Positions 201 through 21,651 are shown, counted from the stretch's first letter. The stretch is 21,651 bases of DNA from a virus (IMGVR_UViG_2896595138_000003), one strand, 5' to 3'. The notes: generated by a model from the sequence alone, not told the origin. Numbers and translations are program-made.

Positions 201-818
201 TTATTCCACGATAAAATTCCTAACCGAATTCAAATCCTTCAGACTATTCAGCTCTTCCTTCAGCTCCCGCTGACGGCGATAAATCTCGTCATTGCGCTCA
301 ACCTGTGCCTGAGCCATTGCTGCCGCCAGTTCTTCCAGTTCCGGCATCGACAGTTTCACCTGCTGATTATCGGCATCACCCCACGTCATCACGTCCCGTA
401 CAATGTCGGATTTCGCCGCCATTACCACCGGATAAAGGCGGCCCAGTGAGTTGGGGCCAGCATCCCAGATACGACCGTTCCATTCAAACGTGAACGGCTT
501 CGCCTCCTGTTCTGTGCGCCATGCTTCAATTCCCTGACGTCTGGCCTCTCTGGCCGCTTCCAGCATTTCTGGTGTCACAGTGAATGGGGCTATCTCACCC
601 CATTTGCCGCTTTGCAGTTCCTGCCAGATTTGCTGACCCGTCGGAGCGACATCATCAGCGGTGGCTGTGTAGGGGACTGCCTGGTCCCTGTCGTCAAAAA
701 AAACGTCACAGTCTACTGCGCCACTTTCGGTATAACGGGGATTAATGATTTTTTTAATTTCCACAGTGCATTCCTCACGATGTGCGAATAAAAAGCCCAA
801 GCATTGCGCCAGAGACAT
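201..818 (-). CDS. Putative tail-fibre assembly/chaperone protein (second copy), 205 aa
   Basis: ORF immediately downstream of and overlapping the second tail-fibre gene; acidic protein with C-terminal coiled-coil-like region; call is by position and composition, not by a recognised motif. Confidence 0.5.
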   Translation of the reverse strand: MSLAQCLGFLFAHREECTVEIKKIINPRYTESGAVDCDVFFDDRDQAVPYTATADDVAPTGQQIWQELQSGKWGEIAPFTVTPEMLEAAREARRQGIEAWRTEQEAKPFTFEWNGRIWDAGPNSLGRLYPVVMAAKSDIVRDVMTWGDADNQQVKLSMPELEELAAAMAQAQVERNDEIYRRQRELKEELNSLKDLNSVRNFIVE

Positions 819-2038
819 ATGTATCCGGCACCCCGGACAGGGCGCAATATGACCCCGGTAATGAATGCTCTGAACATCCCGTAATGAAATATTGTGGGTA
901 TACTATATGCGTTCCGGTGGGAGTACAGGGCGCTGAAATCCCCACCGGTCCCAGTCGTGAGCCTCTGTATGACCGCCCCCTGACAAGTCTGATGTCTTTA
1001 TCACCGTCAGCTTCTCCCTGGTACGCAGCAATAATCAGCCCGCCAATGTCAGGGTCTCCCCATCTGTTGCGGACAGAGCTCGCCACGATTCTGTAAATAA
1101 TATCTTCTGTGGTTATATTTATTTTCACCCAGTCAGTCAGAAATCCAGATAAGAGCCGGTAGCGGGCGTGATAAATGGGGCCGTTAATGCCGTAAAAAGT
1201 AAGGGATTTGGCTCTGCGCCACGGTTCTATTGTCTCAGGGCGTGCATCAGTCCACCGGATGCTGAGCCCCCTTCAAACCGTGTGTCGGGTATGATGATGC
1301 CGTAGGGGCCAGCAACGGAATATTCACCTGGCAGCGCATTCCTTACCCAGACCAGGAAATCATCCTCAGTGTCAAAACGGACAGTATCTTCATGCAGAAA
1401 AGCACGCCCAAAGCCGAATGCACCGGGTATCGCCAGACGGCCTTTTGTCCGGTCGTAAATGTCGCTCTGTGCTTCCATCGTGGCTGCACTTTTCAGCCCA
1501 GATTATCCCGGGACTTCTGTTGTGCCTTTTCGCCTGCTGCTGCGATTTCAGACAGATGGTTAGCCGTTTTCAGAGTGCCGGTCAGCGCAGCATCAATGTC
1601 ATTTTTGGCCTGTTCTGCTGCGCGGGCATAACCTGCGGCTGCCGCCACATCCTGCGCCGTCTGCTGTGCGTTTCCGGCTGCGGCCCCGGCGCTCTGCTGC
1701 GCCTGCGCCACCATTTCCTCAAAGCGTTTGACGACATCCGGTTTCAGGTCGCCCTCATCAGGAGCAATCAGAAAGTCATTCAGCGTGCCGGGCTTTGAGT
1801 CGTCGTATACAGCAATGTCGCCAACACAGTACTCGTTGCGCCAGTCCTGTTTCAGATACACACCATATTTTCCAGTCCGCGCATGGAAACAGTATTCACC
1901 ATCGTTTCCTGTCATCACATCAGCAACAGTGTGCATCACCACTTCCGGGGTGTTTACCCGGGATTTCAGAATAATCTGGTATCCGGACATGGGGATACCT
2001 GCGCCATCAGTCAGCGCACCTGATATCACTACAGACAT
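775..2038 (-). pseudogene. Phage tail-fibre protein, second copy, frame-disrupted (N-terminal 181-aa ORF 1493..2038, then fragments 1227..1478 and 775..1128)
   Basis: N-terminal ORF is Ala/Gln-rich like tail-fibre shafts; reading frame breaks near 1480-1495 and again downstream; followed by an assembly-chaperone gene. Confidence 0.45.
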
Positions 2039-2061
2039 AGTTTTTCTCGCGATAAATTAAA

Positions 2062-2607
2062 TCAGGAAGAACCTTCCGGAGAGACGGACCATTCAATGGC
2101 GTTGTATGAGGATTTATCAGTGATGGTGCTGAAATCCATCGCCTGCAGCGATTTCGCGTAAATACGACAGGCTTTCAGCTTTTCTTTATCTTCGTCGCTG
2201 ATTAACCCCAGCAGCAGGTCTTCTTCCCATTCCCCTGTCCGGGCACTGACCTGAGCCAGAAGGGCATCACGCTCATCTTCCGCTTTGAGTCTGTAGTCAA
2301 AGACAAATTCATCATTGCGGTAAAACCAGTAACCCGGCGCGGTAATGCGGCGGTTGGCGGTAATATCAGGAACTTCAATAACACTGGCGTTACGGGGTTC
2401 AATGCCTGTCACATCCTTACCGACCCACACCACGCGCCCGTCTCCGGTGTAAACCATTTTTATGGTGTCACTGGCGAAATTCTTCAGCTCTTCATACCAG
2501 TTTTTTCCGTCTTCTGAAAAAAGCCAGGTGACCGAATATCGTTTTGTCATCTGATATTGTTCTGCTGTTTTCGGATTACCCGCAGTAATATTTTTTAAAT
2601 GCAACAT
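2062..2607 (-). CDS. tfa: Tail-fibre assembly protein (Mu U / P2 G family), 181 aa
   Basis: N-terminus MLHLKNITAGNPKTAEQYQ...DGKNWYEE matches the conserved N-terminal motif of Mu U-type assembly proteins; lies directly downstream of the tail-fibre gene. Confidence 0.8.
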   Translation of the reverse strand: MLHLKNITAGNPKTAEQYQMTKRYSVTWLFSEDGKNWYEELKNFASDTIKMVYTGDGRVVWVGKDVTGIEPRNASVIEVPDITANRRITAPGYWFYRNDEFVFDYRLKAEDERDALLAQVSARTGEWEEDLLLGLISDEDKEKLKACRIYAKSLQAMDFSTITDKSSYNAIEWSVSPEGSS

Positions 2608-2660
2608 TGTTAAATACTCGCTACGTTATACCAGGTGCCATTAATCAGTTTTTGCAGTGG

Positions 2661-3812
2661 TCAGTAATACACACCGTCAACGTTATCCGCTGAGTTACGG
2701 CCGGTATCCGATATCGCCATCCCTGACAGCCCGTGTCCCGAAGGTGCGCAAAATCTCCACGAAACGGTGTTACTGCCGGGGCTGTAATACATTTCATGGC
2801 CATACCGTACATCCTGTACCCCCTCTGTTCGATATTTATAGCGGGCATCGAAGTTTCCGTAATTTAACGGAATTACCTGTCCGTTAACAGTGAACACTAT
2901 GCTATTATCCGGGTTTCTCTGGCTGAAAAAATGCCAGCCTGAATCATCAACAAGCTCTGCAACAACAGGCCTGGATGGATTACCCCACAAACAAAACGCT
3001 GCATTTTTCGTGGAGTTGTTGGCGCTGGATAACGTGAATTTTCTGGCAGTTCCGGCCTGAATATTCTTAAAAGCAATAGCCACGCCATTCTGAAAACGAA
3101 ATACATGCTGTCCATTAGCATAAACATCCAGCAGACCATCGCCATTTTGTTTAAACCCGGTATCGTTATCTCCTAAAACGATTGAACTTCCACCTAACGC
3201 ATTCGTCGTACCAATTCCAAGACAACCATTAATGACGGCATTAACCAGAATATTTAGTGTATCCCATTTGAGATTCATCAGGTCTTTAACCCGGCCGCCA
3301 GCGAGGCGGTGTCTCCATTTGAAATATTCATTACCGTTATCCGCCGTTTCAAACCACATGTAGGAATCGGTGTCTGCATCCGAATCATTTTTAAATCCAA
3401 TCTTCGCCCAGTCAGTATTCCGAATCCAGGCGAGGATTGAGTCGTTTTCAAAAGTAAGTCCACCGGACAAGGTATCGCCTTCCTGATGAACATAGCGTTG
3501 ATCTGACTGCTCTTTACTGTAAACCTGAAGATTATCCCGTGCCGTCCCTTTATTCTGAAGGTCTGACAGATTGTTCTTCTGCCGCAGGAATATCCTTTTC
3601 GGATCCTCAAGAAGATTTACCCAGCCCGCACTGTCGGAGCCTTCAGGATCGGTCAGGTTATCGTCTGTGGTATTCAGCCAGACCGCTGTTGTTGCGACTC
3701 CGGCGAGAATGGCTCCTTTTGCATATCCACCAATGGCCCCCGCAAAACCGGCATTATACGTGTACAAACCGCCAGCTTGGGCGAACCGTATTGCTGCGGT
3801 AATATCGTACAT
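2661..3812 (-). CDS. Phage tail-fibre protein (P2 gpH-like distal region), 383 aa
   Basis: Contains motifs typical of enterobacterial myovirus tail fibres ([50 protein letters not shown]); has its own ATG with an AAGGA ribosome-binding site; the frame stays open upstream to the IS110 boundary. Confidence 0.8.
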
Positions 3813-3844
3813 CAGACCGTTAAAATCCTTGCCGTGTGGCGGTA

Positions 3845-4073
3845 CCCCGTTACTTTATTCGTACCCTTATAATGGGGTGTTAGCCAGCCAGACCCGGCAT
3901 GATTACTGCCCCAGTCGTCCATGATCCGGGGGGGGATGTCACCGGGTCTGGTGGGGCGCTGGTAACCGCTAATAGGGGTCAGGTCAGGCACTTTTGCCGG
4001 GACCGTCTGTAACGTGGATGCCGGTACCTGCTCCCCGTGGTTATCTGGTTAACCCATATACAAGGGAGACAGA
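3845..4073 (+). ncRNA. Candidate IS110-type bridge (guide) RNA in the 5' non-coding leader
   Basis: Established knowledge that IS110-group elements encode a bridge RNA in the left-end leader; the leader here is 229 bp, GC-rich with self-complementary segments, and contains a TATAAT at 3868-3873; not verified by structure or model search. Confidence 0.35.
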
Positions 4074-5270
4074 ATGACCGAATCCAGCGATTACGAATCC
4101 GTCCAGGTCTTTATCGGCGTTGATGTCGGTAAAGATACGCATCACGCTGTTGCCATTAATCGTTCAGGTAAACGCCTGTTCGATAAAGCATTACCCAACG
4201 ACGAAAACAAACTCAGGTCGCTAATATCTGACCTGAAACAACATGGTCAGATACTGCTGGTTGTTGATCAGCCAGCTACCATCGGTGCGTTACCTGTCGC
4301 CGTTGCCCGCTCAGAAGGAGTCCTTGTCGGATACCTCCCTGGACTGGCCATGCGCCGCATAGCCGACTTACACGCCGGTGAAGCTAAAACTGATGCTCGT
4401 GACGCTGCCATCATTGCCGAAGCTGCCCGTACCCTGCCTCACGCGCTACGCACGCTGAAACTGGCTGACGAGCAAATCGCCGAACTCTCCATGCTCTGCG
4501 GCTTCGATGATGATCTTGCCGCACAGACAACGCAGGCCAGCAACCGTCTCCGCGGCCTTCTGACCCAGATACATCCGGCACTGGAGCGCGTTCTCGGTCC
4601 GAGACTTGAGTACCCGGCGGTACTCGATCTTCTCCAGCGATATCCCTCACCAGAAAAACTCGCTTCGCTGGGTGAGAAGAAGCTGGCAGCCCAGCTCTGC
4701 AAACTTGCGCCTCGTCTGGGTAAACGCCTTGCAGCAGACATAGCTCAGGCACTGGCCGAACAAACCGTCGTCGTTCCCGGCACGAATGCCGCTGCCGTAG
4801 TACTGCCACGTCTGGCACTCCAGCTCATCACGCTGCGTAAGCAAAGAGACGAGGTGGCGCTTGAGGTAGAACAGCGAGTTCTTGCTCACCCTCTTTACCC
4901 GGTCCTGACCAGTATGCCCGGAGTCGGTGTCAGGACCGCAGCCAGACTCCTCACCGAGGTCGCCTGCCGCGCCTTCGTCTCTGCCGCACATCTCGCTGCT
5001 TATGCTGGCCTTGCGCCGGTAACTCGGCGATCCGGCTCGTCAATACGCGGTGAGCATCCCTCGCGACGGGGTAATAAAGCTCTCAAACGGGCGTTGTTCC
5101 TGTCGGCCTTCGCCGCGCTCAGGGATCCGCTCTCCAGGGCTTACTACACCCGCAAAATGAGTCAGGGAAAACGACACAATCAGGCGCTTATCGCCCTGGC
5201 GAGACGACGCTGCGACGTTCTGTTCGCCATGATGCGCGACGGGACTTTTTATACCCCGCAGGGGTCATAA
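4074..5270 (+). CDS. IS110-family transposase/recombinase (DEDD RuvC-like N-terminus, IS116/IS110/IS902-type C-terminus), 398 aa
   Basis: N-terminal IGVDVGKDTHHAVAI motif and C-terminal MPGVGVRTAARLL helix-hairpin-helix region. Confidence 0.9.
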   Translation: MTESSDYESVQVFIGVDVGKDTHHAVAINRSGKRLFDKALPNDENKLRSLISDLKQHGQILLVVDQPATIGALPVAVARSEGVLVGYLPGLAMRRIADLHAGEAKTDARDAAIIAEAARTLPHALRTLKLADEQIAELSMLCGFDDDLAAQTTQASNRLRGLLTQIHPALERVLGPRLEYPAVLDLLQRYPSPEKLASLGEKKLAAQLCKLAPRLGKRLAADIAQALAEQTVVVPGTNAAAVVLPRLALQLITLRKQRDEVALEVEQRVLAHPLYPVLTSMPGVGVRTAARLLTEVACRAFVSAAHLAAYAGLAPVTRRSGSSIRGEHPSRRGNKALKRALFLSAFAALRDPLSRAYYTRKMSQGKRHNQALIALARRRCDVLFAMMRDGTFYTPQGS

Positions 5271-5442
5271 CATGCTTGACAACTTAATAGGGGCCCCCCG
5301 CTGAGACCGCTGTCATGGTCGTCGGAGGAAAACCTGAATCATACGCAGCATTACCGCTCTCTCTGGTCTACTGTGTCGCCTTGTCCGGGATACGGTTTTT
5401 ATCTCCGGTACTCGCAAAGGGGACCGCCAGCTGGCGGGTTTA

Positions 5443-6047
5443 TCACTGGCCTTCATTACGGGACTCCTTTAAAACTACTGAAACATAAACACCCGGCGGG
5501 GACGGCAGTGCACCCGACGACTGGATAATCGCCAGTTCTGCCGACGAGAGCGCGGACTCAAAGACGTAACTCATCCTCAGCCCGCCATTATTCAGAACAT
5601 AAGCCCGCCGTTTTTTTCCGAACATAAACCTCAGCATCCGGTTAATATCTGGAACGGAACAGTCAGTAATATTCGACATGGCTTTCATCAGGATCAGTCG
5701 CCGGTATATGGCATCAGTCAGGTCAACAGTCCGGGTAACCGATTTTCCGTTGTAAAACGGTGCCTGATTAAACGGGCGGGAATCATCCATTACCGGGGTG
5801 TCCATCCTAGACTCGCTGAAGCCCAGGTAATTAAAATCGTCCTTTACCGTCAGCCGGCGACTGACACCCACAATCTTTCCCCAGACATCAAGACCATACT
5901 TTTCTGCGGTATCGATGTTCCAGATAAGACCATAAAAATCACTGATAAAACTGTCGGGGAGAGCGCTGCGTTAAAGCTGTTAATGAGGGCATTGAGTCGG
6001 GAGCTGGCAGCATACTGCGCAAGCACAGTGGCAGCCACATTCTGCAC
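5443..6047 (-). pseudogene. Phage tail/baseplate protein at the gpI position, frame-disrupted (ORFs 5850..6047 and 5443..5871)
   Basis: Lies between the J-like gene and the tail fibre; two overlapping ORFs in different frames; no recognised motif. Confidence 0.35.
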
Positions 6048-6048
6048 G

Positions 6049-7284
6049 TTATGCCTCCTGGAGTTTCACACTGATATCCGACACATCCAGAACCGAAATC
6101 TCATCTATCCCGAAAGTGACAGCCGTTGTCCATGACGAACCGTCACGGCTCACAGTAAGGCCCAGAATATCAATATGTTCCGGATCGGTTTTGTAAATGC
6201 CGGCATAGTAGCGCCCGGCAGAGACAACAGAGGCAACTCTTGCCCGCAGACCACCATCTGTACCATTAAATGCGTCCAGCACGGATTGCTGTACCTGTCG
6301 GGTAATATCTGAAGGCAGGTAGTCACTTTTTTTCAGCGTCACACTGACATGCAGACTGACGGGTTTGAGTGTCTGCCAGCTGATCACGTATTCAGGATAC
6401 GGCGGATCGTACTCCTTATCTGCAACAGTGAACGTTGTGTTGCCATTCATATCAATACCCGGCGGAGCCTTACGCCAGATGGCCGCCGCGATATCTGCCG
6501 GGCTGCCGCCGTACACGCCAACATAAAGCGAACCGGGTGTTAATGGATACTGACTGACTCCGGCTTTTTGTTCTGTTTTTTTCGGATTATGGGTGACGTA
6601 AACATCCACCACGTTTTCTACCGTGGAGAGTATTTCACCCCGGATGGCTTCCAGAATATTCCGGGCATTACGGGCAACTGAATTACGTCGGCGGTTTTCA
6701 AAGTCCGCACGGGTTTCCTCATCGCTGCCCGGCACACCGGCACGGGCGTTAGTGACACCTGACCAGCCAGGTATTGCCTTATAAATTTTATTCAGCGTCC
6801 CCACAGGACAGCCGACGGGCCGGTGGACAAATTCAGAAATACCGCATCAACCTGCCCTGATGCGCCGATAGTGACGTCTGACTGACATACTTATAACCGG
6901 CCTCATCCTGCGCCATACTGCCCGCCGGGATCAGCGTGCCAACCAGCCCGGTACAGGTCGCTGTTACTGTCGTACCTGTGGCCCCACGGCGCTCCAGGAA
7001 ATAAATCCTGCCTATTGCATCCTGAAAGCGACCACTGGAAAAGTCAGGGTTGATCTGGTTAACGATATACAGCAACTGATCGTTTTTATCCGCAATAATG
7101 GCGCTTTCGCTGGATGCAAGTTGTCCCTGCGGACTGCTCAGACTGGTACTCATGGCCCGCCCAGCGCCGCCGAAAAATCAGCAAGCCTGCCGCTCAGAAT
7201 ATCCGCTTCATCCGGCACATTCAGCCCGCTATCCGAAATCTGTACAGCGGGCACTGCGGTAGAAAAAGATTTATTTTCACTCAT
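6049..7284 (-). pseudogene. Baseplate assembly protein J-like (Mu gp47 / P2 gpJ family), frame-disrupted in two places
   Basis: Three consecutive ORFs (7151..7284, 6833..7153, 6049..6804); the first ATG overlaps the stop of the upstream gene (ATGA), consistent with one ancestral gene of about 410 aa. Confidence 0.6.
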
Positions 7285-7636
7285 AGCAGTACCGTAAAAA
7301 TGTCATTATTGGTATCTGTAATACGCAGCACACCTGTTACTGTCCGGGTTTGATCAGCTGTGACCTGGCAGACAGCGGCGCTCACGGTCGGCAGTTTAAG
7401 TGCTTCCTGTTGCAGAGTGGCATTCACCAGTTGTGTGCCGGGCCAGTGTCCGAGGATGCGTGGCCAGTAAGGTATGCCAGCCGTTGAGTCGTACCAGCAC
7501 TCCCCAGAAAAGTACTGCACGCACACGCCACATCCTGAGCTACCGCATGGGGATTATCAGTAATGGCAAGATTTCCGGTATCATCAAGCAGGATATCCCA
7601 TGTCCCGGTGTCAAGAAGAAGTGATCGTGACTGCAT
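7281..7636 (-). pseudogene. Baseplate protein W-like (gp25/gpW-sized, about 118 aa), frame-disrupted
   Basis: Size and position between the V-like and J-like genes; two overlapping ORFs (7424..7636, 7281..7526). Confidence 0.35.
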
Positions 7637-7648
7637 GTTTTCTCCTGT

Positions 7649-8325
7649 TTACCGGGGTCCCTGCGTGGTTGAGCCGCCGGACTCAACGCCGCCGTGAACG
7701 TGGTTTCCAAAATCAATACCCCCGATGTTCGAACCGCCGGAAAGCCTGGACTGCCCGGTAACGTTAAGCCCCTTACTGACGGCGGTATCGCCGTTCAGCG
7801 CAATTTGTGGTGAGTTAACGGTGAAGCTTTTCGGCGCATTAATCACACCCTCAGGCGCAGATATCTCCACTTTCCAGGGAGATACAATCCGTATCTGGTT
7901 GTCATCAAATACCACAAACTGGACGGGATCACCGTTGAGCACACCACCCAGCCAGATGGCATCAGCATAATTATGGGTACGCTTTGATCCCGGCATCGCA
8001 GCCTGACGCGTGGCTTTTACCGCACTGATATCCCGATCGCAGATGGCAAGAAAACCGATATCCCCCACATGTGGCGGCATAATCACCGCATTACCGCCCC
8101 CTGTAGTCGCCATACGGGAATGTTATAAATCACCTCATGTTCAACCGGGGAACCGTCTGCTGCAACGCCCATTACCATCGGTCGGGCCTCAATAAATCCC
8201 TCTTCCACGGCTACCACCCGTCCCAGAGTGATAAACGCATGACGTCCGAGAAACTGCCGCAGCATAAAGTCCTGTGCATTGATTTCGCTGTTCACGTCTG
8301 TCGGGTTACTGAGTGGTTGTGCCAT
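7649..8325 (-). pseudogene. Baseplate assembly protein V (spike), frame-disrupted by a 1-bp change in a G-run near 8100-8106
   Basis: C-terminal Gly-rich HxH region (GGIDFGNHVHGGVESGGSTTQG) resembles P2 gpV; restoring one G in the run joins ORFs 8083..8325 and 7649..8113. Confidence 0.7.
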
Positions 8326-8424
8326 TTTCTTCAGCCCTCATCATGGTACAGTTGGAACTCCACGGACCGCCCACGGTTCGCGAAGTAATGGTGTGTATCA
8401 CCCCTATGATCGTATAATCGCCCG

Positions 8425-12898: not shown

Positions 12899-13336
12899 AT
12901 GTCGCCATCATTACGCAAGGCTGTTGCAGTTGCTATTGGTGGCGGGGCTGTAGCTATAGCATCTGTGTTAATCACTGGCCCAGGTAGTAACGATGGTCTG
13001 GAAGGTGTCAGCTACATACCATACAAAGATATCATTGGTGTATGGACTGTATGTCACGGACACACCGGAAAAGACATCATGCCTGGTAAAACGTATACCG
13101 AAGCAGAATACAAAGCTCTCCTGAATAAAGACCTTGCCACTGTCGCCAGACAAATTAACCCGTACATCAAAGTCGATATACCGGAAACAACGCGCGGCGC
13201 TCTTTACTCGTTCGTTTACAACGTGGGCGCTGGCAATTTCAGAACATCGACGCTTCTTCGCAAAATAAACCAGGGCGATATCAAAGGCGCATGTGACCAG
13301 CTACGTCGCTGGACATATGCTGGCGGTAAGCAATAG
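12899..13336 (+). CDS. R: SAR endolysin / phage lysozyme R (GH24) ending at a premature TAG; the ancestral frame continues 19 codons to the TGA overlapping the Rz start
   Basis: N-terminal signal-anchor-release segment ([20 protein letters not shown]); the codon after the TAG reads [19 protein letters not shown] in frame, consistent with a W-to-amber change. Confidence 0.85.
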
Positions 13337-13392
13337 AAAGGGCTGATGACCCGTCGTGAGATTGAGCGTGAAGTCTGTTTGTGGGGGCAGCA

Positions 13393-13890
13393 ATGAGCAG
13401 AGTCACCGCGATTATCTCCGCTCTGGTTATCTGCATCATCGTCTGCCTGTCATGGGCTGTTAATCATTACCGTGATAACACCATTACCTACAAAGAGCAG
13501 CGCGACAAAAACGCAAGAGAACTGAAGCTGGCGAACGCAACCATTACTGACATGCAGCAGCGCCAGCGTGCTGCTGATGCCCTCGATGCTAAATACACGA
13601 AGGAGTTAGCCAATGCGAAAGCTGAAAATGATGCTCTTCGGCGCAAGCTTGATAATGGTGGTCGGGTGCTCGTCAAAGGAAAATGCCCTGTGCCATCCTC
13701 AGCCGAAACCTCCAGCGCCTCCGGCATGGGCAATGATGCCACCGTCGAACTCTCTCCAGTTGCTGGACGAAACGTTCTCGGTATCCGGGACGGAATCATC
13801 AGCGACCAGACAGCATTGAGAATGCTTCAGGAGTACATCAGGATCCAATGCCTTGGGGGTGCCCCTATTAAGTTGTCAAGCATGTTATGA
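13393..13890 (+). CDS. Rz: Rz inner-membrane spanin; last 8 codons and the stop are supplied by the IS110 copy 2 end
   Basis: [29 protein letters not shown]...; ATGA overlap with the endolysin frame; ORF track start 13381 is an upstream alternative start. Confidence 0.8.
13613..13819 (+). CDS. Rz1: Rz1 outer-membrane lipoprotein spanin, embedded in the +1 frame of Rz, 68 aa
   Basis: Lipobox (LIMVVGC) followed by a Pro-rich segment ([16 protein letters not shown]), fully inside Rz. Confidence 0.8.
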
Positions 13891-15081
13891 CCCCTGCGGG
13901 GTATAAAAAGTCCCGTCGCGCATCATGGCGAACAGAACGTCGCAGCGTCGTCTCGCCAGGGCGATAAGCGCCTGATTGTGTCGTTTTCCCTGACTCATTT
14001 TGCGGGTGTAGTAAGCCCTGGAGAGCGGATCCCTGAGCGCGGCGAAGGCCGACAGGAACAACGCCCGTTTGAGAGCTTTATTACCCCGTCGCGAGGGATG
14101 CTCACCGCGTATTGACGAGCCGGATCGCCGAGTTACCGGCGCAAGGCCAGCATAAGCAGCGAGATGTGCGGCAGAGACGAAGGCGCGGCAGGCGACCTCG
14201 GTGAGGAGTCTGGCTGCGGTCCTGACACCGACTCCGGGCATACTGGTCAGGACCGGGTAAAGAGGGTGAGCAAGAACTCGCTGTTCTACCTCAAGCGCCA
14301 CCTCGTCTCTTTGCTTACGCAGCGTGATGAGCTGGAGTGCCAGACGTGGCAGTACTACGGCAGCGGCATTCGTGCCGGGAACGACGACGGTTTGTTCGGC
14401 CAGTGCCTGAGCTATGTCTGCTGCAAGGCGTTTACCCAGACGAGGCGCAAGTTTGCAGAGCTGGGCTGCCAGCTTCTTCTCACCCAGCGAAGCGAGTTTT
14501 TCTGGTGAGGGATATCGCTGGAGAAGATCGAGTACCGCCGGGTACTCAAGTCTCGGACCGAGAACGCGCTCCAGTGCCGGATGTATCTGGGTCAGAAGGC
14601 CGCGGATACGGTTGCTGGCCTGCGTTGTCTGTGCGGCAAGATCATCATCGAAGCCGCAGAGCATGGAGAGTTCGGCGATTTGCTCGTCAGCCAGTTTCAG
14701 CGTGCGTAGCGCGTGAGGCAGGGTACGGGCAGCTTCGGCAATGATGGCAGCGTCACGAGCATCAGTTTTAGCTTCACCGGCGTGTAAGTCGGCTATGCGG
14801 CGCATGGCCAGTCCAGGGAGGTATCCGACAAGGACTCCTTCTGAGCGGGCAACGGCGACAGGTAACGCACCGATGGTAGCTGGCTGATCAACAACCAGCA
14901 GTATCTGACCATGTTGTTTCAGGTCAGATATTAGCGACCTGAGTTTGTTTTCGTCGTTGGGTAATGCTTTATCGAACAGGCGTTTACCTGAACGATTAAT
15001 GGCAACAGCGTGATGCGTATCTTTACCGACATCAACGCCGATAAAGACCTAGACGGATTCGTAATCGCTGGATTCGGTCAT
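13885..15081 (-). pseudogene. IS110-family transposase, copy 2, with a TAG at codon 11 (CAG in copy 1)
   Basis: Direct comparison: GTCCAGGTC in copy 1 versus GTCTAGGTC in copy 2 (15049-15051 on the plus strand); otherwise one L-to-I substitution. Confidence 0.8.
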
Positions 15082-15311
15082 TCTGTCTCCCTTGTATATG
15101 GGTTAACCAGATAACCACGGGGAGCAGGTACCGGCATCCACGTTACAGACGGTCCCGGCAAAAGTGCCTGACCTGACCCCTATTAGCGGTTACCAGCGCC
15201 CCACCAGACCCGGTGACATCCCCCCCGGATCATGGACGACTGGGGGCAGTAATCATGCCGGGTCTGGCTGGCTAACACCCCATTATAAGGGGTACGAATA
15301 AAGTAACGGGG
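15082..15311 (-). ncRNA. Candidate IS110-type bridge (guide) RNA leader, copy 2
   Basis: Same leader as 3845-4073 but differs at three homopolymer runs (C4 vs C3, C5 vs C4, C7 vs C8). Confidence 0.3.
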
Positions 15312-15399
15312 CGGTAATTTTACTCATTATCCTTCAAATCAGATTCTGTTGTCAGAGGAATGGGGGAAGCTGGATTCGCAAGAGCTTTTTATGGGCAGT

Positions 15400-15909
15400 T
15401 TAGCTAAAAAAAGGCAACACGAAGCTAAAACTACCAACATAAAGTGCTGACCAGCTAGCAGCTGAAATCAGACTCACTGTATACACTTTCACTGGATGAA
15501 GTTGCAACATTCCTGCCACCAAAGGAGCAATATAACGCAGCACGGCGATAAAGCGCGAAGTGAAAAGTATTGACACAGAGTTATTTTGCAACTGAAGGCG
15601 AACCCGTTCTATTGTATTGGAACGACTCGATATTATACATGCAAGTTGAGGGATATGCCCAATTATTATACCAAGATGGTAATTAACGATAGTACCGCAC
15701 CATGCGCCACTCATGACCGTGATTCCAGCTTCCCATGGTGAAAGAGTCGTCTTGCTGACTGTAATTATAGTGGCCATCATAATTGATGCTGGTGGCAATA
15801 TCGCCGAAATGAGTAAAGTGGATTTTGTGAACGCTATTATAAAAAGAAGCCCCCATAGGCGATATGGATGAAGTACAAAATAGTTCATCAAAGCATTTAT
15901 CCACTCCAT
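15400..15909 (-). CDS. DedA/YqaA-like (SNARE-associated family) inner-membrane protein, about 169 aa
   Basis: Hydrophobic protein with DedA-like segments (LISAILPPASIMMATI..., NYHLGIIIG); likely ATG at 15909 preceded by AGGAAAG; the ORF track starts one codon earlier on TTG. Confidence 0.5.
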   Translation of the reverse strand: MEWINALMNYFVLHPYRLWGLLFIIAFTKSTLLISAILPPASIMMATIITVSKTTLSPWEAGITVMSGAWCGTIVNYHLGIIIGHIPQLACIISSRSNTIERVRLQLQNNSVSILFTSRFIAVLRYIAPLVAGMLQLHPVKVYTVSLISAASWSALYVGSFSFVLPFFS

Positions 15910-16008
15910 CAATGTCTTTCCTTCTGTGAATTTTTCTTTGCTATTTAACCGTGATACGACTTAATTTAGGCTTAAACACCTTACATTTACAAGGTACTCC
16001 TGTGGGGG

Positions 16009-16029
16009 CCTGCCACGGAGCGTGGCAGG
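16009..16029. other. Perfect 9-bp stem-loop CCTGCCACG-GAG-CGTGGCAGG, with an overlapping alternative pairing ACTCCTG/CAGGAGT
   Basis: Read directly from sequence; sits about 100 bp upstream of the DedA-like gene start; no U-tract, so not a canonical terminator. Confidence 0.3.
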
Positions 16030-16115
16030 AGTGAGTGATGAGGAAGAATTAAAGCAACCTATTGTGACAGGCAGCGATAACAGTAAATCACAGGAAGCAT
16101 AATCATGGCAAAACC

Positions 16116-16145
16116 GTAAGCGCCCCGAGAAGTACGTAGCGTAAG
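16116..16145 (+). repeat. Orphan 30-bp IS66-family terminal fragment, duplicate of 9391-9419, abutting the IS600 copy B left end
   Basis: GTAAGCGCCCCGAGAAGTACGTAGCGTAAG; identical to the copy at 9391-9419 except C4 versus C3. Confidence 0.6.
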
Positions 16146-16209
16146 TGAGGTAGCCTGAGTTTAACGGACACTCCTTCCTGAAATAGAATGGCATCAGAAG
16201 GAGCTAATA

Positions 16210-16512
16210 ATGAGCAGAAAAACCCAACGTTACTCTAAAGAGTTCAAAGCCGAAGCTGTCAGAACGGTTCCTGAAAATCAACTTTCGATCAGTGAAGGCG
16301 CTTCCCGATTATCCCTTCCTGAAGGCACTTTAGGACAATGGGTTACCGCCGCCAGAAAAGGGCTCGGTACTCCTGGTTCCCGCACGGTGGCTGAACTGGA
16401 ATCTGAAATTCTGCAACTGCGTAAGGCGTTAAATGAAGCTCGCCTTGAGCGAGATATATTAAAAAAAGCAACAGCGTATTTTGCACAGGAGTCGCTGAAA
16501 AATACGCGTTAA
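16210..16512 (+). CDS. IS600 OrfA, 100 aa
   Basis: One substitution relative to copies A and C (TVPENQ versus TVLENQ). Confidence 0.9.
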   Translation: MSRKTQRYSKEFKAEAVRTVPENQLSISEGASRLSLPEGTLGQWVTAARKGLGTPGSRTVAELESEILQLRKALNEARLERDILKKATAYFAQESLKNTR

Positions 16513-16547
16513 TCGAACAATGGCGACAACAATTTCCCATTGAAGCG

Positions 16548-17366
16548 ATGTGTCAGGTATTTGGTGTATCCAGGAGCGGTTATTACAACTGGGTACAGCA
16601 TGAACCCTCAGACAGAAAACAAAGTGATGAGCGGCTAAAACTGGAGATTAAGGTGGCACATATCCGCACTCGCGAAACATATGGAACCCGGCGGCTCCAG
16701 ACGGAGCTGGCAGAGAATGGCATCATCGTTGGTCGTGACCGACTGGCACGTCTTCGTAAGGAGCTAAGGCTACGCTGTAAGCAGAAACGCAAGTTCAGAG
16801 CGACTACGAACCCGAACCACAATCTGCCAGTTGCGCCAAATCTGCTGAACCAGACGTTCGCTCCTACAGCACCAAATCAGGTCTGGGTGGCGGACCTGAC
16901 GTATGTTGCCACACAGGAGGGATGGTTGTACCTCGCTGGCATCAAAGATGTTTATACGTGCGAAATTGTCGGCTACGCCATGGGAGCGCGCATGACAAAA
17001 GAGCTGACAGGTAAAGCCCTGTTTATGGCGCTCAGGAGCCAGCGCCCACCTGCCGGGCTAATCCACCACTCTGATCGAGGTTCACAGTACTGCGCATACG
17101 ATTACCGGGTCATACAGGAGCAGTTTGGTCTGAAAACATCAATGTCGCGTAAAGGTAACTGTTACGACAACGCTCCGATGGAAAGCTTCTGGGGAACGCT
17201 GAAAAATGAGAGCCTGAGCCACTATCGTTTTAATAACCGGGATGAAGCCATCTCAGTAATACGGGAATACATTGAGATTTTCTACAATCGTCAGCGTCGT
17301 CACTCTCGTCTGGGGAATATCTCCCCGGCAGCCTTCAGGGAAAAATATCATCAGATGGCTGCTTAA
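16548..17366 (+). CDS. IS600 OrfB transposase (DDE), 272 aa
   Basis: Intact ORF; IS3-family DDE transposase, normally expressed as an OrfAB fusion by -1 frameshifting. Confidence 0.9.
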   Translation: MCQVFGVSRSGYYNWVQHEPSDRKQSDERLKLEIKVAHIRTRETYGTRRLQTELAENGIIVGRDRLARLRKELRLRCKQKRKFRATTNPNHNLPVAPNLLNQTFAPTAPNQVWVADLTYVATQEGWLYLAGIKDVYTCEIVGYAMGARMTKELTGKALFMALRSQRPPAGLIHHSDRGSQYCAYDYRVIQEQFGLKTSMSRKGNCYDNAPMESFWGTLKNESLSHYRFNNRDEAISVIREYIEIFYNRQRRHSRLGNISPAAFREKYHQMAA

Positions 17367-17545
17367 AAAAAGAACAAATGGTAGTGTCCGCTATTGCCAG
17401 TACACCTCAGTGGTGAAATAAAACCGGGCACAACACGAAGGCGCATTTCCGGTATCCATAAAGAGTCGGTCTTGTCTGTTAAATTTAAATGGTGGGAGTG
17501 CGCCTCCGGTTGTAAATAACGACATTGCTGTGTGAAGTACCAGTT

Positions 17546-17587
17546 GGCGGCATCGGTTTAATTGCTGGCTGATGTCCGCCCTTTTTA
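17546..17587 (+). terminator. Candidate intrinsic terminator: 9-bp stem (GGCGGCATC / GATGTCCGCC with one bulge), 16-nt loop, then CTTTTT
   Basis: Read from sequence; the loop is longer than typical, so moderate at best. Confidence 0.35.
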
Positions 17588-17730
17588 AAGTGAATTTTGT
17601 GATGCGGTGAATGCGGCTCAGCGCACGCGGAACAGTTAAAACAGTAAGGAAAATCCCTTATTCCGGCGTTAATTGTTAACTGGTTAACGTCACCTGAAGG
17701 CACCAGGCACCGCATCAACAAAGTTCACTT
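17587..17730. promoter_or_regulatory. Pair of about 22-bp imperfect inverted repeats (AAGTGAATTTTGTGATGCGGTG ... CACCGCATCAACAAAGTTCACTT) separated by about 100 bp, upstream of the Rha operon
   Basis: 20 of 22 positions complementary with one indel; the interval also contains two GTTAAC palindromes. Confidence 0.4.
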
Positions 17731-17752
17731 CGGTGATGAAAGGAAAGAGAAA

Positions 17753-18397
17753 ATGTTGAATGTAGCTATTGAAAACCAGAACGGGTGGAATTATAGTGCA
17801 CCTGCACCTCATAAAACGGGTGCCGGGATTGCTACCCCGAAGTCATTCACGGCGCATAACCGCGCTCAGGCGGTTTTTTTATACGTAATGCACAGCCACA
17901 TTCAAATTATGGTGGGGCGTGCGGGGCAGTCGCAAGACTGGCCGGGTTCCGTGATGACCGGTTGTAGCAACCCTGTACGTCTCACCACCCATGAGATTGC
18001 TACCTCCGGTGGTGAGTTAATCAAATTCATCGCGGAGGCTGCCATCATGGCTACTACCCTTTCTCACCCTTGTGTAACCGTAGAAAACGGTCGCGCTGTC
18101 ACTACGTCTGTTGCGGTTGCAGAGTTCTTCCACAAACGACACGACAATGTGTTACGTGCCATCGCAAATATTGAATGCTCAGATAAATTTACTGCCCTCA
18201 ATTTTGAGGCGAGCGAATACACCGACTCAACCGGGCGCAAACTCCCAATGTACCAAATCACCAAAAACGGCTTCGTTTTCCTGGTTATGGGATTCACTGG
18301 CAAAAAAGCCGCTGCATTCAAAGAAGCCTACATTGCTGAGTTCGACCGCATGGAGGCCGAACTGCGCCAGAATAACCCCCACCTGCTGACAAGATGA
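17753..18397 (+). CDS. Rha-family phage regulatory protein (pRha domain in the C-terminal half); alternative start at ATG 18047 with a GGAGG site would give a 116-aa Rha-only protein
   Basis: Motif KRHDNVLRAIANI...GRKLPMYQITKNGFVFLVMGFTGKKAAAFKEAYIAEFDRME is typical of the pRha domain; the N-terminal 98 codons have no recognised similarity. Confidence 0.7.
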   Translation: MLNVAIENQNGWNYSAPAPHKTGAGIATPKSFTAHNRAQAVFLYVMHSHIQIMVGRAGQSQDWPGSVMTGCSNPVRLTTHEIATSGGELIKFIAEAAIMATTLSHPCVTVENGRAVTTSVAVAEFFHKRHDNVLRAIANIECSDKFTALNFEASEYTDSTGRKLPMYQITKNGFVFLVMGFTGKKAAAFKEAYIAEFDRMEAELRQNNPHLLTR

Positions 18398-18597
18398 TTC
18401 CGGGTGATGGTCGCACTCTGGTTGTTCACTTCGACAAATTCGGCAATGTCGAATTCACCGAAACCGTTCCTGATGGCGCACTGGTCTGTACCCTGGAGAC
18501 TTTCCGGTTTTATCTGGAAAAACAGGGATGGACTCTTGTTAACCGGGGCGCAATTAAAAATATGACTGTGGAACAATTACTCAAAATTCATTGTTGA
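18394..18597 (+). CDS. Hypothetical small protein, 67 aa, translationally coupled to Rha (ATGA overlap)
   Basis: ORF with start overlapping the Rha stop; no recognised family. Confidence 0.5.
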   Translation: MIPGDGRTLVVHFDKFGNVEFTETVPDGALVCTLETFRFYLEKQGWTLVNRGAIKNMTVEQLLKIHC

Positions 18598-18607
18598 GGA
18601 CGCAATA

Positions 18608-18796
18608 ATGGAGACGTTATTACCAAACGTTAATACGTCTGAAGGTTGTTTTGAAATTGGTGTCACTATCAGTAACCCTGTATTTACTGAAGATGCCATT
18701 AACAAGAGAAAACACGAACGGGAGCTATTAAATAAAATATGCATTGTTTCAATGCTGGCTCGTTTACGTCTGATGCCAAAAGGATGTGCACAATGA
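18608..18796 (+). CDS. Hypothetical small protein, 62 aa
   Basis: GAGGA ribosome-binding site 8 nt upstream; its stop overlaps the next start (ATGA). Confidence 0.45.
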   Translation: METLLPNVNTSEGCFEIGVTISNPVFTEDAINKRKHERELLNKICIVSMLARLRLMPKGCAQ

Positions 18797-18984
18797 ATAC
18801 AGTATTTGCACTCGTTCTGACGGTTTTTCTTGTTTCCGGTGAACCGGTTGACATGGTTACTGGCGTATACAGCTCAATGAAAGAATGTATGACTGCCGCA
18901 GCGAAACAGAAAATTCCCGGTGACTGTTATCCGGTCGATAAAGTTATTCACCATGATAATAACGAAATCCCGGCAGGTCTTTAA
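18793..18984 (+). CDS. Small exported or membrane-anchored protein, 63 aa (N-terminal hydrophobic segment, two Cys)
   Basis: MNTVFALVLTVFLVSGEP... signal-peptide-like N-terminus; AAGGA ribosome-binding site; the ORF track extends further upstream to 18739. Confidence 0.5.
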   Translation: MNTVFALVLTVFLVSGEPVDMVTGVYSSMKECMTAAAKQKIPGDCYPVDKVIHHDNNEIPAGL

Positions 18985-19067
18985 AACAGTTCCGTAATAA
19001 ATATCCGGTTTCATTCTTATATGCCAGCAATGGCAGGGGTTCGCTCAACCTTAATTAAGGAGAAAAA

Positions 19068-19194
19068 CATGATTACCAGTTATGAAGCCACTGTTGTAAC
19101 TACTGATGACATTGTTCACGAGGTTAATCTGGAAGGAAAGCGTATTGGCTACGTGATTAAGACAGAAAATAAAGAAACCCCATTCACTGTGTGA
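19068..19194 (+). CDS. Small ORF (41 aa) whose stop codon is formed by the first bases of IS600 copy C; probably 3'-truncated
   Basis: AAGGAGAAAAAC then ATG; the TGA at 19192-19194 is the IS600 terminus TGAGG. Confidence 0.3.
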
Positions 19195-19234
19195 GGTGTA
19201 CTGGCAATAGCGGACACTACCATTTGTTCTTTTT

Positions 19235-20053
19235 TTAAGCAGCCATCTGATGATATTTTTCCCTGAAGGCTGCCGGGGAGATATTCCCCAGACGAGAGTG
19301 ACGACGCTGACGATTGTAGAAAATCTCAATGTATTCCCGTATTACTGAGATGGCTTCATCCCGGTTATTAAAACGATAGTGGCTCAGGCTCTCATTTTTC
19401 AGCGTTCCCCAGAAGCTTTCCATCGGAGCGTTGTCGTAACAGTTACCTTTACGCGACATTGATGTTTTCAGACCAAACTGCTCCTGTATGACCCGGTAAT
19501 CGTATGCGCAGTACTGTGAACCTCGATCAGAGTGGTGGATTAGCCCGGCAGGTGGGCGCTGGCTCCTGAGCGCCATAAACAGGGCTTTACCTGTCAGCTC
19601 TTTTGTCATGCGCTCTCCCATGGCGTAGCCGACAATTTCGCACGTATAAACATCTTTGATGCCAGCGAGGTACAACCATCCCTCCTGTGTGGCAACATAC
19701 GTCAGGTCCGCCACCCAGACCTGATTTGGTGCTGTAGGAGCGAACGTCTGGTTCAGCAGATTTGGCGCAACTGGCAGATTGTGGTTCGGGTTCGTAGTCG
19801 CTCTGAACTTGCGTTTCTGCTTACAGCGTAGCCTTAGCTCCTTACGAAGACGTGCCAGTCGGTCACGACCAACGATGATGCCATTCTCTGCCAGCTCCGT
19901 CTGGAGCCGCCGGGTTCCATATGTTTCGCGAGTGCGGATATGTGCCACCTTAATCTCCAGTTTTAGCCGCTCATCACTTTGTTTTCTGTCTGAGGGTTCA
20001 TGCTGTACCCAGTTGTAATAACCGCTCCTGGATACACCAAATACCTGACACAT
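19235..20053 (-). CDS. IS600 OrfB transposase, 272 aa
   Basis: Intact; differs from copy B at one residue (AMGERMTKE versus AMGARMTKE). Confidence 0.9.
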   Translation of the reverse strand: MCQVFGVSRSGYYNWVQHEPSDRKQSDERLKLEIKVAHIRTRETYGTRRLQTELAENGIIVGRDRLARLRKELRLRCKQKRKFRATTNPNHNLPVAPNLLNQTFAPTAPNQVWVADLTYVATQEGWLYLAGIKDVYTCEIVGYAMGERMTKELTGKALFMALRSQRPPAGLIHHSDRGSQYCAYDYRVIQEQFGLKTSMSRKGNCYDNAPMESFWGTLKNESLSHYRFNNRDEAISVIREYIEIFYNRQRRHSRLGNISPAAFREKYHQMAA

Positions 20054-20088
20054 CGCTTCAATGGGAAATTGTTGTCGCCATTGTTCGA

Positions 20089-20391
20089 TTAACGCGTATT
20101 TTTCAGCGACTCCTGTGCAAAATACGCTGTTGCTTTTTTTAATATATCTCGCTCAAGGCGAGCTTCATTTAACGCCTTACGCAGTTGCAGAATTTCAGAT
20201 TCCAGTTCAGCCACCGTGCGGGAACCAGGAGTACCGAGCCCTTTTCTGGCGGCGGTAACCCATTGTCCTAAAGTGCCTTCAGGAAGGGATAATCGGGAAG
20301 CGCCTTCACTGATCGAAAGTTGATTTTCAAGAACCGTTCTGACAGCTTCGGCTTTGAACTCTTTAGAGTAACGTTGGGTTTTTCTGCTCAT
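20089..20391 (-). CDS. IS600 OrfA, 100 aa
   Basis: Identical to copy A OrfA. Confidence 0.9.
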   Translation of the reverse strand: MSRKTQRYSKEFKAEAVRTVLENQLSISEGASRLSLPEGTLGQWVTAARKGLGTPGSRTVAELESEILQLRKALNEARLERDILKKATAYFAQESLKNTR

Positions 20392-20455
20392 TATTAGCTC
20401 CTTCTGATGCCATTCTATTTCAGGAAGGAGTGTCCGTTAAACTCAGGCTACCTCA

Positions 20456-21651
20456 ACATTCGCATCTGGTTCATGTTTCGAGGAAAACGATGTCGGGAAA
20501 CATTGAAAGGCTGGGAGATTACTAACAGTAACATTAAAAAGGCCGGGAATTTAAGAGCGTTGATAGTTCATGAAATCAGTTCCGGTGAATTTGAGTATTT
20601 AAGACGTTTGCCCCAGTCCAGCACTGGGGCAAAAATGGTGACAACGAGGGTCATAAAAACATTCGGGGAGCTTTGTGATATCTGGACAAAAATTAAAGAG
20701 ACAGAGTTAACAACAAACACAATGAAGAAAACGAAATCACAATTAAAAACACTCAGGATAATAATTTGTGAGAGTACCCCGATATCGCATATTCGTTATA
20801 GCGATATCTTCAACTACCGGAATGAACTGCTGCATGGAGAAACGCTTTACCTAGATAATCCAAGATCCAACAAAAAAGGAAGAACCGTGCGCACAGTTGA
20901 TAACTATATCGCCCTGCTCTGTTCGTTGTTACGTTTTGCGTATCAGTCGGGATTTATATCAACCAAACCATTTGAAGGAGTAAAAAAATTACAGCGAAAC
21001 AGAATAAAGCCTGACCCGTTATCTAAAACAGAATTCAATGCATTAATGGAAAGTGAAAAAGGACAGAGCCAAAACTTGTGGAAATTTGCCGTTTACTCCG
21101 GGCTTCGTCACGGGGAACTGGCAGCTCTGGCGTGGGAGGATGTGGATTTCGAGAAGGGAATTGTGAATGTCAGAAGAAACCTGACGATACTTGATATGTT
21201 CGGTCCCCCAAAAACAAATGCCGGGATCCGGACGGTAACATTACTGCAGCCGGCTCTTGAAGCACTGAAGGAGCAATACAAACTGACCGGGCATCATCGC
21301 AAAAGCGAAATCACTTTTTATCATCGGGAGTACGGCAGAACTGAAAAGCAAAAACTGCATTTTGTTTTCATGCCCAGGGTGTGTAACGAAAAACAGAAAC
21401 CTTATTACTCGGTAAGCAGTTTGGGTGCAAGATGGAATGCAGCAGTAAAACGTGCTGGTATTCGCCGCCGTAATCCGTACCATACGCGACATACTTTTGC
21501 CTGCTGGCTGTTGACGGCAGGAGCGAACCCGGCATTTATAGCCAGCCAGATGGGGCATGAAACTGCGCAAATGGTGTATGAAATTTACGGTATGTGGATT
21601 GATGACATGAACGACGAACAGATAGCCATGTTGAATGCGCGGTTATCGTAG
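20456..21651 (+). pseudogene. int: Lambdoid prophage tyrosine integrase, 5' end (about 14 codons) replaced by IS600 copy C; possibly Rac IntR-like
   Basis: Catalytic-domain motifs (GLRHGELAAL, HTRHTFACWLL, GHETAQMVYEIYG); the first 16 codons of ORF 20407..21651 derive from the IS600 end; the Rac-like assignment is from memory and not verified. Confidence 0.8.

Follow-up and report, generated by a model that had tools for sequence, protein, structure and literature searches.

The 21,651-nt viral sequence IMGVR_UViG_2896595138_000003 (hereafter the window, meaning the whole stretch analysed, with positions counted from its first letter) carries contractile-tail genes on the minus strand at 201-9389 and a holin stub, an endolysin gene, Rz/Rz1, Rha and DicB genes and an integrase gene on the plus strand, and insertion sequences (IS) stand at every module junction. 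Does such a locus hold two prophages, or one? A first-pass annotation had already assigned these strands and module identities, which Pfam and tblastn searches bore out, and had placed IS elements between the modules, as was found; its conclusion that two prophage lineages had been stitched together was not upheld, given a single pair of attachment (att) sites, syntenic chromosomal flanks, the presence of the same module combination in single genomes, and a lysis inversion bounded by IS600. The window in all likelihood represents most of what is left, riddled with IS elements, of one lambda-organised prophage with a contractile tail, at the Rac (ttcA) site of a Shigella or enteroinvasive Escherichia coli (EIEC)-type chromosome, and we hold with good confidence that its present layout arose within that one prophage by three IS-associated deletions and one IS600-mediated inversion in place.

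Exact-protein look-ups located the window at CP026845.1:665889-687539, where the integrase gene is followed on the right by ttcA, dbpA, ynaL, zntB and dgcM, and the fibre genes are preceded on the left by sitDCBA, uspF, ompN and ydbK; the uspF/ompN/ydbK and ttcA/dbpA flanks correspond to either side of the Rac locus in E. coli, and are syntenic. An att site had been expected just beyond the right edge, and extension of the sequence to the right found it: the 26-bp sequence AAGAAAGAACAATACAACCTGAACAA lies 75 nt 3' of the integrase stop, within the 5' end of ttcA (attL, window-equivalent 21726-21751), and is repeated exactly and directly between uspF and sitA. Because this pair of repeats brackets a 25.6-kb island, the window in its entirety falls within a single att pair. 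No third copy of the repeat was detected in the window with up to three mismatches allowed, and tandem integration was rejected on that ground. An integrase with 98% identity to intR, the repeat at both ends and the syntenic flanks are the features of Rac-type integration. sitABCD lie immediately to the left of the window and inside the att pair, as in the pathogenicity island (PAI) known as 'PAI sit'. The spacer between sitD and the tail-fibre genes (1-200) is an IS-free junction of cargo and tail; across it, from the left chromosomal flank via sitABCD into the fibre genes, EIEC strain CFSAN029787 is collinear at 97.8% identity, and window 1-187 is 86% identical to the region downstream of sitD in prophage 042p3 of enteroaggregative E. 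coli (EAEC).

At the same locus, and within the same 26-mer bounds, CFSAN029787 (NZ_CP011416.1, 4672043-4720401) holds a near-intact prophage of 48.3 kb, which, read in the orientation of the window, is laid out as follows:

Plus strand, first: sitABCD
Minus strand: fibres, baseplate, tape measure, sheath, head, portal, terminase
Minus strand, next: Rz, rrrD, holin, then tRNAs, a Q-like gene, replication genes, ydaT, a cro-like gene
Plus strand, end: a cI-like gene, ydfB/C, Rha, YdaE, a RecE fragment, Gam, xisR, intR, then ttcA

Besides locus, att site and sitABCD, the window shares with this prophage its fibres and baseplate (95-99%), lysis genes and intR, the matches and their relative strands being:

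Left flank, sit and fibres: 97.8%, plus
3084-3844: 95.0%, plus
5294-9389: 98.95%, plus
12855-13853 (lysis): 98.8%, minus
Rha: 84%, plus
Integrase and right flank: 98.9%, plus

Along CFSAN029787 these matches fall at 22893, 27794, 44845->43847, 57539, 58985 and 63226, a monotonic series at 84-99% identity in which the lysis segment alone is reversed; every non-IS segment of the window with a counterpart in CFSAN029787 is collinear, bar the lysis genes, which in CFSAN029787 are oriented with the tail. Because tail genes opposite the integrase and pL genes are the canonical lambdoid layout, only the orientation of the lysis cassette is anomalous. The opposed orientation previously taken as the sign of a composite thus has two parts: tail against integrase is simply the lambda layout, whereas the lysis cassette does point the wrong way, which an inversion explains. 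An intact relative with the same modules in the same orientation had been named as the finding that would overturn the composite; CFSAN029787 supplies the combination of modules, but its orientation differs, again as an inversion would explain.

The lysis genes belong to a 4443-bp block, 11703-16145, whose ends coincide to the base with two mutually inverted, 99.6% identical copies of IS600, the breakpoints having been set against CFSAN029787 and 042p3. The block and its borders comprise:

9390-10439, minus: ISSfl3 (IS66-family) remnant of 1050 bp, with the tnpC-proximal inverted repeat and the 3' part of tnpC, cut by IS600 A
10440-11702, minus: IS600 copy A, left edge of the inverted block
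11703-11850, plus: 148-bp fragment of ydaT end and ydaU start, from an early-right operon of Rac/042p3 type, inverted relative to the integrase
11851-12854, minus: IS911 remnant with an internal deletion, truncating the holin gene and bridging the holin-ydaU deletion
12855-12899, plus: last 45 nt of a class II holin gene (Pfam)
12899-13393, plus: RrrD/P21-type endolysin (Phage_lysozyme, PF00959)
13393-13860, plus: Rz (PF03245), 3' end cut by IS110
13613-13819, plus: Rz1 (PF06085), embedded in Rz
13856-15311, minus: second copy of the IS110-family element, simple insertion at the 3' end of Rz
15400-15912, minus: DedA/VTT-domain membrane protein (Pfam PF09335), a moron downstream of Rz
16116-16145, plus: ISSfl3 stub of 30 bp, adjoining IS600 B
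16146-17409, plus: IS600 copy B, right edge of the inverted block

Recombination between inverted repeats inverts the DNA that lies between them. The lysis genes would point with the integrase, and away from the tail, because the IS600-bounded block, with everything from the ydaT/U fragment and IS911 remnant through the lysis cassette, IS110 copy and DedA to the ISSfl3 stub, has been flipped. Turned back on paper, the left part reads baseplate, ISSfl3 remnant, IS600, ISSfl3 stub, DedA, IS110, Rz, R, holin stub, IS911 remnant and ydaU/T, and the right part IS600, sieB-kilR intergenic DNA, Rha, DicB, 'phage protein' stub, IS600, truncated intR and attL. As far as sequence comparison can tell, this would be the canonical order minus three IS-bridged deletions, collinear with both CFSAN029787 and 042p3. 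The holin-endolysin-Rz/Rz1 cassette, which is not co-oriented with the structural genes in the window, is co-oriented with them in all intact relatives and becomes so once the block is flipped. IS-mediated inversions are very frequent in Shigella (PMC8072062).

The second reference, prophage 042p3 (ROD21) of EAEC 042, is an intact sit phage at the Rac site ttcA (PMC2808357). It resembles the window in this site, in intR (98.1%), in sitABCD at the tail end, in essD-rrrD-Rz (90.9%), in ydaT/U and in gene order, and differs in its capsid, which is of P22 type, and in its tail, which is lambda-like and non-contractile (tube, tape measure, L, K, I, J, Lom). Two independent pieces, the ydaT/ydaU fragment (98% identical to 042p3 11302-11449) and the lysis genes (042p3 18768-19553), are both reversed in order and strand, opposite to all other 042p3-like segments of the window, which are collinear.

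What was observed are the gene identities, the locus, the pair of att sites, the collinear order in intact relatives and the placement of IS600 at both block edges; the recombination event and the order of events we infer from these. The ancestor, a lambda-organised temperate phage, would have carried, in its first part, attL, intR, xis, a pL operon with Rha and DicB, an immunity region, replication genes, a Q-like gene and tRNAs, and, in its second, a class II holin, an RrrD-type endolysin, Rz/Rz1, DedA, terminase, head, contractile tail, fibres, sitABCD and attR. After integration, IS110-family elements, ISSfl3, IS911 and IS600 would have colonised it. Three IS-associated deletions would then have followed: one of about 16 kb, with the baseplate plug and the small terminase as its limits; one of about 12.7 kb, which began at the 5' end of the holin gene and took the early region except for 148 bp of ydaT/ydaU; and one of about 4.2 kb, in which the stretch running from recE to xis was lost together with integrase codons 1-13. 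Recombination of the inverted IS600 copies at 10440-11702 and 16146-17409 would finally have flipped the block between them.

The elements at these junctions are preserved to varying extents. The ISSfl3 remnant at 9390-10439 (99.8% identical to full ISSfl3 copies, its end having been compared with a full copy) bridges the deletion of about 16 kb, whose size comes from the comparison with CFSAN029787. The IS911 remnant, with recognisable OrfA and OrfB translations, is 99.3-99.4% identical to the IS911 of sequence L029. IS600 copy A, so named from the automated (PGAP) annotation of sequence L001, is 99.6-99.8% identical to B and to a third copy, C; the copies vary at only six sites, and single-nucleotide differences are uninformative on mosaicism. 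The tnpC-proximal end of ISSfl3, GTAAGCGCCC(C)GAGAAGTACGTAGCGTAAG, occurs at both 9390-9419 and 16116-16145, in the same orientation, and is interrupted by an IS600 in both cases, 1050 bp in at the first and 30 bp in at the second; the deleted structural genes must once have lain between two copies of ISSfl3. Two other reconstructions were discarded. The 16116 stub was considered as the opposite end of the 9390 remnant, such that the flip would rebuild one element, and comparison with a full copy showed it to be the same, tnpC-proximal end. Inversion between the IS110 copies at 3845 and 13856 was also considered; both are simple insertions with contiguous flanks, and a flip between them would break the fibre gene.

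Several observations weigh against an inversion in place. None of IS600 copies A, B and C has a target-site duplication, so the reciprocal exchange of flanks in an inversion cannot be shown, the missing duplications being consistent with the adjacent deletions. Exact-protein look-ups did not find the un-inverted block in this lineage, and all three genomes are inverted. The best matches of the block, at 99.2-99.6%, are ipaH prophages at other loci, against 98.8% for the same-locus orthologue. The same ISSfl3 end at 9390 and 16116 requires two ISSfl3 copies and extra events, and the CFSAN029787 prophage is without DedA, without DicB/DUF1482 and without a counterpart of the ydaT/ydaU fragment, its Rha being just 84% identical.

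Among the ipaH prophages, that of EIEC RMDEC465 is a 53-kb ipaH3 prophage with yebY and pphA, adjacent genes in K-12, as its syntenic flanks:

RMDEC465, early order: int, xis, RecE, YdaE, Rha, ydfC, cI/cro, replication genes, a Q-like gene, tRNAs
RMDEC465, late order: class II holin, rrrD, Rz, DedA, terminase, DUF1073 portal, DUF3383 sheath, baseplate, fibres, DUF4376, ipaH3

The ipaHa prophages of VL40 and O121 have the same architecture. Against RMDEC465, identity of the window amounts to 96.5-98.7% for the tail, 99.2% for the lysis genes, 99.6% for DedA and 93% for Rha. The EIEC ipaH prophages are like the window in their lambdoid early and lysis regions, with holin-rrrD-Rz-DedA at 99.2-99.6% and the pL gene Rha at 93-96%, and in their contractile-tail family; they differ in their integrases and att sites, in carrying ipaH in place of sit, and in the canonical orientation of their lysis genes.

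From such a paralogous prophage the lysis-DedA block might have been imported into an otherwise single prophage, through IS600 recombination or as a composite transposon, and it is this account, improbable as we consider it, that fares best among the alternatives. Inverted IS600 flanks are the architecture of a composite transposon, the block is closer to the ipaH prophages than to the same-locus orthologue, and the latter has no DedA. However, the block holds a ydaT/U fragment of Rac/042p3 type, which the ipaH prophages lack and which the flip brings to within 2.3 kb of its canonical neighbour; no target-site duplication surrounds the IS600-block-IS600 unit, and order and orientation fit a simple inversion in place.

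The composite originally proposed, in which a myovirus-type prophage (tail) and an unrelated lambdoid one (lysis, Rha, integrase) were joined by IS elements or by tandem integration, we judge to be very unlikely. It takes its appeal from tail and lysis genes on opposite strands, from the IS at every junction, and from the first baseplate match, an EIEC ipaHb prophage between yfhL and yfhH whose lysis and integrase genes are dissimilar to those of the window. Against these stand the single att pair with no third att and with syntenic flanks; the same tail, lysis genes and intR united in the near-intact prophage of CFSAN029787 at the same locus; the module combination recurring in RMDEC465 and in the isolated phage PA-1; the canonical lambdoid opposition of tail and integrase; and the IS-free joint between sit and tail fibre. 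Identity of the window with the yfhL-yfhH ipaHb prophage was itself rejected: the tail matches, whereas lysis, Rha and integrase have neither DNA nor protein similarity. An IS911/holin junction in common with EIEC O121 was likewise dismissed, the match there being merely a nearby IS911. An error of assembly at the 1.26-kb IS600 repeats is scarcely credible as the source of the inverted orientation, for although the source assembly has many homopolymer indel errors, the independent JARKNR010000001.1 has the same arrangement, 99.8% identical over 14.5 kb across both IS600 copies, as does CP026877.1 save for one more deletion.

In an IS-rich genome, then, late-gene modules on opposite strands are no proof of two phages: one IS-bounded inversion inside a single prophage suffices, and comparison with a less decayed strain at the same locus settles the question of one phage or two. 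In favour of a single prophage with an inversion in place, the same island layout recurs in two other assemblies, CP026877.1 and JARKNR010000001.1. CP026877.1 is without 2.46 kb, equivalent to window 11824-14287 and running from inside the IS911 remnant to inside IS110, with which the whole lysis cassette is gone; this deletion shows continuing decay of the same island. JARKNR010000001.1 has an extra insertion of about 1.3 kb (L031 2909-4240), encoding an IS3-family transposase, at window-equivalent 7153 inside baseplate J, and is otherwise collinear at 99.8%. No published mention of the accessions was found in the literature searched.

Frameshifts split every baseplate gene, the fibre gene with the N-terminal domain, Rha, orfB of IS600 A and the neighbouring sit genes. 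Relative to CP026877.1, almost all indels are of 1 nt in G/C homopolymers, and 29 of 35 are shorter in the source. Their positions in the window are 1267, 1497, 5436, 5956, 6817, 7156, 7502, 8097, 8477, 8708, 9221, 9270, 9372, 9397, 10190, 10740 and 18376. Homopolymer indels also occur in sitA-C, ydbK and ttcA, in the housekeeping flanks, and the phage open reading frames (ORFs) are intact in the sister genomes; to judge from these comparisons, the apparent frameshifts and pseudogenes in the tail genes, Rha and IS600 A are probably artefacts of sequencing or assembly. The real lesions are the IS insertions and truncations, the deletions, and a nonsense codon in the endolysin gene. sitA, sitB and sitC (L011 11673-14264) each fall into two or three ORFs in the source and are intact in CP026877.1, CFSAN029787 and draft contigs. 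As their splitting is likely to be a homopolymer artefact, loss of Sit function should not be deduced from the source assembly.

The endolysin lesion is a change of codon 146 of 165 from TGG to TAG at 13334-13336. JARKNR010000001.1 encodes the identical product of 145 amino acids (aa), so that this, unlike the homopolymer frameshifts, is a real inactivating mutation. The window lysis cassette is inactive. Its genes (12855-13860) lie on the reverse strand relative to the tail and are 99.2% identical to those of RMDEC465 and VL40, and 98.8% to those of CFSAN029787. The endolysin is 98.2% identical to a protein named RrrD by the Prokaryotic Genome Annotation Pipeline, and its likeness to P21 R suggests that it may be of the signal-anchor-release (SAR) kind. 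DedA has 100% aa identity to the RMDEC465 protein, an identical protein is joined to the same terminase/portal module in the metagenomic contig L018, a further single sequence that speaks for the modules belonging together, and DedA adjoins Rz and terminase genes in L004, L018 and L027. The slot between Rz and terminase holds DedA in the window and the ipaH prophages, an unrelated hypothetical gene (L035 43041-43637) in CFSAN029787 and trkG in 042p3; it is a variable moron slot.

The tail-fibre and baseplate genes, identified by Pfam and by tblastn with intact orthologues, are:

201-818, minus: DUF4376 protein (Pfam)
778-2038, minus: phage_tail_N fibre protein (Pfam)
2062-2607, minus: Caudo_TAP fibre assembly protein (Pfam)
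2613-3844 and 5294-5436, minus: Gp34_trimer fibre, interrupted by an IS110-family element (Pfam, tblastn)
3845-5293, plus: IS110-family element with a 398-aa DEDD transposase (Pfam PF01548/PF02371)
5446-9173, minus: DUF2612, baseplate J, sheath initiator (W-like), spike with GpV Apex motif, and hub (Pfam)
Ending at 9389, minus: truncated baseplate-plug gene

The segment 2613-3844 holds the C-terminal 412 codons of the Gp34_trimer fibre, whose N-terminus lies with the baseplate genes in 5294-9389. The fibre region 201-3844 is 94-98.6% identical to EIEC ipaH/sit prophages (tblastn with RMDEC465 proteins), and 5294-9389 is 98.95% identical to CFSAN029787 and 98.66% to RMDEC465. Hub, spike, gp25-like sheath initiator, baseplate J and wedge, recognised in the window and in intact sister ORFs by Pfam and by tblastn, are parts of a contractile tail; the sheath and tube genes are not in the window, having been deleted, and a DUF3383 sheath, homologous to the annotated sheath of Pantoea phage PA-1, is present in the orthologues. 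The first-pass description of this tail as myovirus-type was sound, that as P2/Mu-like was not. P2 and Mu tails share with it a functional parts list (GpV Apex spike, W/gp25-like sheath initiator, baseplate J, fibres and assembly proteins), but the families matched are DUF2612, Sheath_initiator and E217_GP41 rather than P2 I or W, and beyond these only the generic Baseplate_J (below the cutoff) and the Apex motif were matched; neither P2 nor Mu appeared among the 20 best sheath matches listed, nor among the genera tallied. The families matched and the nearest phages place this baseplate outside the P2 and Mu lineages.

For this tail the nearest isolated phage is PA-1 (baseplate 67% at the nucleotide level, sheath 52% at the aa level), followed by temperate phages of Klebsiella and Edwardsiella. 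PA-1 (OQ847583.1) has its integrase opposite the late genes, an N/cI/cro/O/Nin layout and a class II holin-lysozyme-Rz cassette, after which come terminase, sheath, hub, spike, wedge, J and fibres; it differs in being distant, in its host and in its cargo (acyltransferase). The phage collection contained no isolated phage close to this tail module (window 5294-9389 and L035 31657-33141), and no member of the Shigella/EIEC sit and ipaH prophage type appears to have been cultured. The comparisons link the sit and ipaH prophages to one contractile-tailed, lambda-organised phage type without a close cultured representative, of which the window is a decayed member and which in EIEC also bears ipaH genes at other sites. 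That they form one coherent uncultured lineage, with lambda-type regulation and lysis, a PA-1-like contractile tail, sitABCD or ipaH cargo at one position after the fibres, and interchangeable integrases, is a tentative idea that we rate as rather doubtful.

Between IS600 B and the right edge, the window contains:

17411-19191, plus: pL-operon remnant
17411-17730, plus: sieB-kilR intergenic-like DNA
17753-18597, plus: Ash/Rha gene (Pfam)
17804-17880, plus: isrK-like Hfq-binding RNA (Rfam, 64.8 bits)
17905-17992, plus: C4-like antisense RNA (Rfam, 79 bits)
18608-18796, plus: DicB (Pfam)
18793-18984, plus: DUF1482 (Pfam)
19069-19191, plus: first 41 codons of a Rac-type 'phage protein'
19192-20455, minus: IS600 copy C, bridging the deletion of about 4.2 kb (recE to xis, with integrase codons 1-13)
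20456-21651, plus: intR-type tyrosine integrase without codons 1-13, its stop the last codon of the window

In the window intR is on the plus strand with attL downstream, and the upstream genes that share its strand are Rha, DicB, DUF1482 and the 'phage protein' stub; this is the lambdoid layout. The integrase ORF opens at an ATG (20407) inside IS600 sequence, the true gene beginning at 20456, and the Pfam Arm-DNA-bind_2 profile matches only from its position 11; identity is 98.1% to intR of E300010 and 042p3, and 98.9% to that of CFSAN029787. A divergent cI/cro immunity region, replication genes and a Q-type regulator are absent from the window, where they have been deleted and only the 148 bp of ydaT/ydaU are left; all three are present in the CFSAN029787 orthologue and in RMDEC465. 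K-12 Rac and its relatives share with the window the integrase type, the attachment site and the sieB-kilR and 'phage protein' fragments, but Rha, DicB and DUF1482 take the place of the kilR and ydaE of K-12 Rac, and its late region is of another type.

Rha is 96% identical to its counterpart in VL40, 93% to that in RMDEC465 and 84% to that in CFSAN029787, and the pieces flanking it are 88% and 97.7% identical to 042p3. The 67-aa ORF after Rha, described otherwise before, is the C-terminus of Rha. The isrK-like and C4-like RNAs both lie inside the 5' 'Ash' part of the annotated Rha ORF, with a terminator-like hairpin at 17858-17875. These sequence matches suggest an RNA-controlled antirepressor module, like P1 immI or Gifsy-1 IsrK, at Rha, and suggest that the start of the Rha ORF may be over-extended.

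sitABCD beside phage genes and many IS elements, in islands that are rearranged, unstable and variable in size and orientation, have been described as PAI sit, with insertion sites at aspS/yecN (Fisher et al. 2009, as summarised in PMC7545054), in contrast to the ttcA (Rac) site of the window island. The window is an island of this known, unstable kind, here in the Rac site, and mechanistically it is nothing new; beyond placing a sit island in that site it matters little outside annotation, and its history is ordinary genome decay. The flanks of the ipaHa prophage of VL40 (NZ_CM177011.1 1609651-1662443) are not syntenic, gyrA-yfaA adjoining its integrase end and ybhB-bioA its ipaH end; a large chromosomal rearrangement through recombination of two related prophages is the probable cause.

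IS sequence amounts to 8775 bp, or 40.5% of the window, and consists of two IS110-family elements, two ISSfl3 remnants, three IS600 copies and the IS911 remnant, all between modules. The IS110 copy at 3845 is a simple insertion in the tail-fibre gene, 3844|5294 being contiguous as 15150|15153 in L002, and the flanks of the copy at 13856-15311 are contiguous in L004 (15005|15009). It is conceivable, though rather doubtful, that the lysis block between IS600 copies A and B still inverts or can be mobilised in living populations. The two IS110 copies, 3845-5299 (plus) and 13856-15311 (minus), are 99.6% identical and mutually inverted; they enclose 8.5 kb from baseplate to Rz and form a ready substrate for further inversion.

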